From: Shigella phage sb2 | DNA: 64,000 nucleotides | Sequence record: PQ666540 | Strand: one strand, 5' to 3' | Shown here: piece by piece, positions 21,155 to 21,879 of the stretch | Numbering within the stretch: position 1 is the stretch's first letter | Layout: each line of letters opens with the position of its first letter | The notes under the pieces: model-generated | What the model was told of the DNA's origin: nothing | What the model saw: the letters and a program-made list of their open reading frames with translations, nothing else | Databases searched by the model: none | Translations under genes and position numbers: made by a program

Positions 21155-21607
21155 TTAAGCCGTAAGACCGAGACTCTGGAACATGTTCAGAACGAAATGA
21201 AGAATATCAATCATTTCAAATTTAATTTCCAACTGGTCTTGTGGAGATAAGTCAGTAATCAGAGTTTCACGACGTTCACCATGTTGAGATTTCCACGGCT
21301 TCCATACAGCAGATGCATCTTTTTCGCCATTGCTCATACCACCAAGAGAAGTCAGTAGTTCGCGGAATTCATCATCAATATAATCTTTCTGATTACGCAG
21401 CCAATCAACAACTTCACCTGCGGTAGCCAAATCATCAGGATGACGATTATATTCAGGCTTATCTTTAGCTAAACGAACCTGCAGAGATTTCTGCATATCA
21501 AGCATAACTTGCAGTGGGTCTTTTTCATCACCGAGAATATCCCAGTATTCATTTTGAGCTTTATCAGCGCCTTCGATCAGTTGTGAACATTCATTAAAGT
21601 AAGCCAT
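21155..21607 (-). CDS. 56: dCTP pyrophosphatase (gene 56, MazG-like)
   Basis: Start MAYFNEC with RBS AAGGAAA; shorter than the 171 aa I recall for T4. Confidence 0.7.
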   Translation of the reverse strand: MAYFNECSQLIEGADKAQNEYWDILGDEKDPLQVMLDMQKSLQVRLAKDKPEYNRHPDDLATAGEVVDWLRNQKDYIDDEFRELLTSLGGMSNGEKDASAVWKPWKSQHGERRETLITDLSPQDQLEIKFEMIDILHFVLNMFQSLGLTA

Positions 21608-21678
21608 TATTTTTCCTTTCAATTCATGGGTTAGTAGATTAATTATACAATAAATATATAAAGCAATAAGGAGGACAT

Positions 21679-21879
21679 ATGGTACAAAAATTAATGGCAC
21701 TTATTAATGCCATCAAAGGTAATAAAAAACGTATAGCTTTTACTATTTCTGCTATGGTAGGAATTTTACTTTGGAATTTTGTTTTATCGCCAGTTGCTAT
21801 TGCTCATGGCGTTAGTATTCCAGTAATTACTCTTGATACATTCGTAGACTTAGCATTTGCTTTAGTTGGGTTAATTTAA
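21679..21879 (+). CDS. small membrane protein encoded on plus strand
   Basis: 66 aa with two hydrophobic segments; strong SD AAGGAGG 6 nt before ATG; convergent overlap with gene 61 stop. Confidence 0.5.
   Translation: MVQKLMALINAIKGNKKRIAFTISAMVGILLWNFVLSPVAIAHGVSIPVITLDTFVDLAFALVGLI

Follow-up and report, generated by a model that had tools for sequence, protein, structure and literature searches.

The closest described relatives of the gene reported here are RB32ORF030w, VR7ORF033w and gp45 of phage pSs-1, all of them annotated as hypothetical proteins, and the profile phrog_2024, which is uncharacterised. Better described phage genes resemble it in single respects. The T4 antiholin RI and the small late envelope proteins of lysis inhibition are of small size and carry an N-terminal membrane segment, and RI has in addition a folded periplasmic domain. 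The class II holins and pinholins, such as S68 of phage 21, are hydrophobic proteins of 60-70 residues. Imm and Sp of T4 are small envelope-directed accessory proteins with known exclusion roles, encoded by early minus-strand genes. With regard to expression, the nearest parallels are soc, whose product is a capsid protein of the virion, and gene 49 with its late promoter and late start. In both, as in the gene reported here, a short TATAAATA-type box precedes the ATG by 22-31 nt, a strong Shine-Dalgarno (SD) sequence is present, and the surrounding block is early/middle. However, soc and gene 49 lie on the strand of the early genes, whereas our gene is encoded on the other strand and runs towards gene 61, the two stops overlapping. 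Our analysis makes it likely that it is a genuine T-even accessory gene, predicted to be late, whose product is a predicted inner-membrane protein with one transmembrane (TM) helix.

The window, i.e. the whole stretch of 64,000 nucleotides analysed from Shigella phage sb2 (PQ666540), is a Tequatrovirus (T4-like) segment; its positions 21100-22400 share 97.5% identity with Shigella phage sb4, and matches were obtained in 736 phage records. The original prediction placed a plus-strand ORF of 66 codons with an AAGGAGG sequence between the start of gene 56 and the stop of gene 61, overlapping the latter by 4 nt in an otherwise minus-strand region. We reproduced these coordinates (Table 1), and found that the two stops share the same TTAA. 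Counting ATG-started ORFs of 60 aa or more, 58.4 kb of the minus strand is covered versus 9.0 kb of the plus strand, and only one of the 38 plus-strand ORFs, the predicted one, combines a full SD with a location in a gap between minus-strand genes. No other credible plus-strand gene exists in the 64-kb minus-strand block, and no other gene of the long early/middle block has the opposite orientation. Its product starts with MVQKLMALINAIKGNKKR and ends with ALVGLI. The distance from the SD to the ATG is short, and when the RNA of 21655-21730 is folded, neither the SD nor the start codon is paired.

Table 1. Coordinates of the features at the 56-61 junction, as positions of the window.
Feature	Position	Strand	Details
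Gene 56 (dCTPase)	21155..21607	-	ATG at 21607; ended early by TAA TAA
Predicted MotA-dependent middle promoter of gene 56	21642..21666	-	MotA box TTGCTTTA 21666-21659, 11-nt spacer, -10 TATAAT 21647-21642; predicted from a consensus match
T4 late-promoter-like box AATAAATA	21649..21656	+	22 nt before the ATG; predicted transcript start ~21662
Shine-Dalgarno sequence AAGGAGG	21668..21674	+	4 nt before the ATG of the ORF; sequence read
Small membrane-protein ORF, 66 codons	21679..21879	+	ATG 21679-21681, TAA 21877-21879; ORF list
Terminator-like hairpin and U-run, downstream of gene 61	21682..21716	-	Hairpin 21716-21691; antisense to ORF codons 2-13
TTAA, overlapping convergent stops of the ORF (+) and gene 61 (-)	21876..21879		4-nt overlap
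Gene 61 (DNA primase)	21876..22904	-	Context of the ORF

A minus-strand ORF of 181 aa started by GTG (21155-21700) was considered and rejected, as it consists of gene 56 plus a non-conserved upstream extension. Gene 56 itself ends in GCT TAA TAA at 21152-21157 (-), where pSs-1 and vB_SsoM_113 have GCT GAA GAA. These are two neighbouring G-to-T changes, each making an ochre codon, and they leave a product of 150 aa versus 172. The tail beyond TAA TAA, now untranslated, carries several more substitutions.

The protein encoded by the ORF was found by tblastn in 692 phage records, in 685 of them nearly full length. Identity is 80-99% in 502 records, which are from Tequatrovirus, and below 60% in the other 190 (Mosigvirus, Gaprivervirus and others), while the Jiaodavirus orthologue as the query retrieved 333 further records. 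The site between 61 and 56 (or dam) and the opposite strand are kept in eight Tevenvirinae genera, among them Tequatrovirus including T4, Gaprivervirus (VR7), Mosigvirus, Jiaodavirus, Marfavirus, Moonvirus and Gelderlandvirus. The original prediction was to be dropped if relatives did not conserve the ORF; these records and genera show that T-even phages keep it at the 56-61 junction. The 4-nt stop overlap with gene 61 is also present in T4, Mosigvirus, Marfavirus, Moonvirus and Gelderlandvirus, and Jiaodavirus has a GC-rich hairpin between the two convergent genes. Every orthologue examined is preceded by a GGAG-type SD. Karamvirus and Krischvirus do not carry the ORF at this site and have other genes there instead, so the gene is dispensable in some relatives.

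The ORF product matches the phrog_2024 profile with E=8.4e-31 (residues 2-66 to positions 1-65 of 65) and is 86-98% identical to the annotated Tequatrovirus proteins. It is an orthologue of RB32ORF030w and VR7ORF033w and a member of phrog_2024, with the same family, position and strand and no difference of substance; the exact protein sequence of the window is on record only from unannotated assemblies. We observed two subfamilies, type A with the pattern AIKG...WNF...HG...DTFVD...GLI and type B with FYQIWKL...LWNLLVVPIAATQG...TGVPS. Marfavirus has type B alone, and in Gaprivervirus type B occurs as the second of two tandem copies. A profile search of 1.84 billion representative proteins returned seven matches, six from the same phage family and one spurious PQQ-repeat protein. 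A larger collection yielded 114 clusters, all from T4-like enterobacterial phages, and the named ones are almost all 'hypothetical', with one 'DNA packaging ATPase'. The family is confined to T-even-like enterobacterial phages. The gene is already catalogued as hypothetical, and what we describe is a well-delimited uncharacterised family and not a new kind of system.

The second copy in Gaprivervirus is unannotated and directly follows the first (loci L003, 3202-3470; L010, 2701-2901; L012; L014). L010 and L012 keep it as a complete 66-aa frame whose stop overlaps the gene 61 stop. VR7 has a frameshifted version, and the L014 copy has been destroyed by ATG-TGA plus a frameshift.

The T4 genome is among the best studied, yet its reference record omits this conserved gene. 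NC_000866 carries an intact ORF at 17738-17938 (+) that overlaps gene 61 by 4 nt, and its annotation has no feature between dam (16846-17625) and 61 (17935-18963). In the large collection the exact T4 protein comes from unannotated assemblies only and has no NCBI name. KJ477686 is among the other T4-type records that also omit the ORF. Omics studies built on the annotation of NC_000866 cannot see the gene, and adding it would give a defined and testable candidate for a late membrane function. The practical value of our analysis is thus an annotation correction together with a delimited uncharacterised family. Our literature search found no paper on ORF030w or the peptide, and the searches for T4 ribosome profiling and transcriptomics gave nothing on the locus.

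We analysed the substitutions in 15 orthologues. For close pairs within Tequatrovirus dN/dS is 0.10-0.18, and within genera it is about 0.1-0.2. Comparisons across genera give pS of 0.55-0.81 versus pN of 0.30-0.37, with a single one-codon indel, so that the synonymous sites are near saturation and yet the frame is kept; it is maintained down to 20-27% identity. The variable alignment columns number 44, 19 and 56 at codon positions 1, 2 and 3, respectively. The reading frame is under purifying selection. A phase-specific pattern of this kind cannot arise from signals on the other strand, and we take the ORF as a real gene; judged by its sequence record, 21679-21879 is a widely conserved protein gene and more than a chance ORF.

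The timing of expression was assessed from the DNA upstream of the ORF. The T4 late promoter consensus is TATAAATA at -13 to -6, perfect at 32 of the 50 listed T4 sites, and A at -13 is the commonest natural variant (9 of 50), most of the others having a single deviation (PMC2988020). The T at -13 is poorly conserved in T4 relatives (PMC1524935), and how the variants rank in strength in vivo is not known (PMC2988020). A box of related type lies 12-22 nt before the ATG in each of the eight genera examined. It reads GATAAATA in T4, CATAAATA in Gaprivervirus and Jiaodavirus, AATAAATA in the window and in Mosigvirus, and the perfect TATAAATA in Marfavirus. In most genera the box is one base off the consensus, and in two, Moonvirus and Gelderlandvirus, it is two bases off (ATTAAATA). 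Locus L009 has unrelated DNA ahead of the box and still carries box, SD and ORF as one unit. Our scan revealed no sigma-70-type promoter on the plus strand before the ORF.

The core motif of the box is markedly underrepresented in the window. ATAAATA was seen six times in the 64-kb window against 39.4 +/- 6.6 expected (~6.5-fold depleted), and TATAAATA four times against 10.3 expected. The six ATAAATA copies are at 10741(+), 17414(+), 21078(-), 21650(+), 47331(-) and 60918(-), and four of them lie 22-31 nt before an ATG with an SD, namely those of soc, our ORF, gene 49 and a 70-aa ORF. Our analysis suggests that the ORF is probably made late in infection in a gp55-dependent manner. Based on the consensus and its conservation, the late RNA polymerase with gp55, gp33 and gp45 would transcribe it from the AATAAATA box with a start near 21662, and the resulting leader of 17 nt would leave AAGGAGG exposed. 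Among the other copies, the one at 60918 (-) is that preceding the 70-aa ORF. No ORF follows the two plus-strand copies at 10741 and 17414, which may serve as antisense late promoters.

The same DNA also carries candidate minus-strand signals. A middle promoter consists of a MotA site near -30 and a sigma-70-type -10, and a MotA-dependent transcript near 56 has been implicated in priming at oriA (PMC3016281). We predicted such a promoter for gene 56 (Table 1), and T4 carries an equivalent MotA-type element upstream of 56. Transcription of gene 56 is predicted to start at ~21635 (-), 27 bp away from the predicted start of the late RNA, and the two diverge. The late box falls inside the spacer of the middle promoter, so that the two promoters are interleaved on the same 25 bp. 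In a dam-less lineage of this kind, the switch from middle to late polymerase would exchange the use of these 25 bp. In T4 the dam gene separates the late box from the middle promoter of gene 56.

Reading along the minus strand, the stop of gene 61 is followed by ~160 nt antisense to the ORF, the terminator-like hairpin with its U-run, the MotA-type promoter and the ATG of 56. The hairpin folds with -12.4 kcal/mol (z=-3.8), and its T4 equivalent is weaker (-8.9, z=-2.6). By eye, the sequences of Mosigvirus and Gaprivervirus have no such hairpin. The bases of this element are coding on the plus strand and a possible terminator on the minus strand.

These elements raise the question of whether the region might be conserved for its minus-strand cis elements, i.e. 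a terminator for 61 and a middle or oriA-type primer promoter for 56, with the plus-strand frame as a mere passenger. The terminator-like hairpin, the consensus MotA promoter and the transcript implicated at oriA (PMC3016281) are in keeping with it. However, the elements span the first 38 nt of the ORF and the DNA upstream and not its other 160 nt, Mosigvirus and Gaprivervirus keep the protein without the hairpin, and codon-phase selection cannot stem from minus-strand signals. We see next to no chance that this explanation is correct, and continue to regard the ORF as a protein gene.

It had also been proposed that transcription of the ORF would be antisense to the 56 leader. From the predicted starts, the two transcripts would diverge with no overlap of the promoter-proximal 56 leader, so the proposal does not apply to a leader made from the predicted 56 promoter; it would hold only for read-through RNA coming from gene 61. 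In the other direction, the ORF and gene 61 overlap at TTAA so that no terminator can fit between them, and a scan of 20700-23200 gave no plus-strand terminator. The overlapping stops imply that the predicted late RNA must continue antisense into gene 61. The predicted ORF mRNA would thus be antisense only to 61 read-through RNA and, where it extends beyond the ORF stop, to the 3' end of gene 61.

Such an RNA could by itself be the functional product. In that case the ORF would be a chance ORF or part of a non-coding late antisense RNA, and any function would lie in pairing with the 61-to-56 read-through RNA. The unavoidable complementarity just described speaks for it, and T4 regions are known to be transcribed on both strands at different times (PMC2988020). 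The frame-specific substitutions, the low dN/dS, the frame kept to 20-27% identity with invariant W, N, P and G, and the strong SD kept everywhere all argue against it, and the chance that it applies is very small.

The original prediction described the product as a protein with two TM segments, of which we could confirm the first and not the second. In the AlphaFold2 model residues 1-18, with a net charge of +5, form a short amphipathic helix, followed by a helix at 16-42 (pLDDT 80-88), a loop at 43-51 and a short helix of 12 residues at 52-63. Summed crudely on the Hessa scale, residues 19-37 come to 0.7 kcal/mol and any C-terminal window to +5 to +11 kcal/mol, whereas the Kyte-Doolittle values stay high up to the C-terminus. 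The C-terminal part is net -2, has no basic residue and ends in DLAFALVGLI. One TM helix (~residues 19-42) with the N-terminus inside is well supported. A second span is doubtful, as the modelled C-terminal stretch is short and holds two conserved acidic residues. The positive-inside charge bias together with one segment able to span the membrane is what an inner-membrane protein would be expected to have.

All 43 diverse members of the family that were compared have W32, N33, P38 and G44, and A40, P48 and G64 are nearly invariant; position 53 is acidic (D/E) in the eight sequences compared, except for G in the second copy of Gaprivervirus. The N- and C-termini of the family diverge fast. From the positions of these residues, the conserved core would comprise the periplasmic end of the helix and the subsequent loop. 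The sequence and the model suggest that the product would insert in the inner membrane with its basic N-terminus in the cytoplasm and the single TM helix across the membrane. This would place the conserved W-N-x4-P-x5-G-x3-P segment at the periplasmic end of the TM helix, and the short acidic helix (D53, D57) would then lie at the periplasmic face or dip back into the membrane. There is no K or R after R18, leaving one hydrophobic tryptic peptide of 48 residues, and the product would therefore escape standard proteomics.

We found no match to the product in Pfam, NCBIfam or PADLOC, no analogue in a fold search of the PDB, and no paralogue within the window. A fold search of BFVD returned only its own family plus weak matches to 63-aa phage proteins including that of Karamvirus CIP9. 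One UniRef record labels the vB_EcoM_OE5505 orthologue 'Holin', and a small class II-like holin or pinholin would be consistent with the small size, the hydrophobicity and the predicted late promoter, features in which the product resembles S68 of phage 21. However, its hydrophobic C-terminus of net -2 differs from the charged tail typical of holins, and the second TM segment is doubtful. There is also no linkage to an endolysin or lysis cassette, the neighbours being primase and dCTPase in all genera, and no holin family of Pfam, PHROG or NCBIfam was matched. T-even phages, moreover, already use holin T. The label looks automatic, other named records being almost all 'hypothetical', and we rejected it for the missing charged tail and endolysin linkage. 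It is very unlikely that the product is a holin of this type.

The best account of the product is a non-essential inner-membrane protein, predicted to be made late, that would bind a partner at the periplasmic face. The small size, the N-terminal membrane segment and the predicted late timing are shared with RI and the other small late proteins of lysis inhibition, and the most conserved residues of our product, which would be periplasmic, would suit the binding of a membrane partner such as holin T. In contrast to the folded domain of RI, however, its periplasmic part has ~24 residues, and the two proteins have no sequence or fold similarity. We know of no genetic link of the ORF to the r genes. 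Nothing links it specifically to lysis, and it is without a sequence or fold relative of known function. We speculate that the periplasm-side segment may bind a membrane partner late in infection, the likeliest being the lysis/lysis-inhibition apparatus (holin T or antiholin RI), failing which a protein of the host envelope would be the candidate; this suggestion is tentative and on balance unlikely to be right. It is quite unlikely, too, that the product is a missing late envelope component, for example one that uses its invariant W-N...P...G...P segment on the periplasmic side to tune holin T and antiholin RI and with them lysis timing or inhibition, the late promoter also helping to shut the 56/oriA-type middle promoter in dam-less phages.

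An alternative hypothesis could be that this real membrane protein serves superinfection exclusion or anti-defence, as Imm and Sp do, and not lysis, possibly with some early or middle expression. The neighbouring sp and, in Mosigvirus, imm encode small envelope proteins of that kind, although they have no homology to our product. The narrow, host-range-restricted family with its fast-diverging termini is typical of host-interaction genes, and the tandem second copy decays in Gaprivervirus. Against this, the ORF lies on the strand opposite to all early and middle genes, the late-type box is the only element conserved upstream and no sigma-70-type plus-strand promoter appeared in the scan, and PADLOC gave no match. 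We judge an exclusion or anti-defence role decidedly unlikely.

Other ORFs were noticed beside gene 61 in some relatives. In Krischvirus KFS-EC (locus L018, 2544-3107) an unannotated ORF of 187 aa, from its sequence a putative homing endonuclease, fills the 61-56 gap on the strand of 61. An ORF of ~94 aa that starts with MNIEQHAFLKLGEECTEVA adjoins 61 on the same strand as 61 in Karamvirus EnC07 and in Marfavirus (loci L015, 2523-2807, and L017, 2740-3021). The Marfa annotation calls it a nucleoside triphosphate pyrophosphohydrolase, which makes it a second small MazG-like gene beside gene 56.
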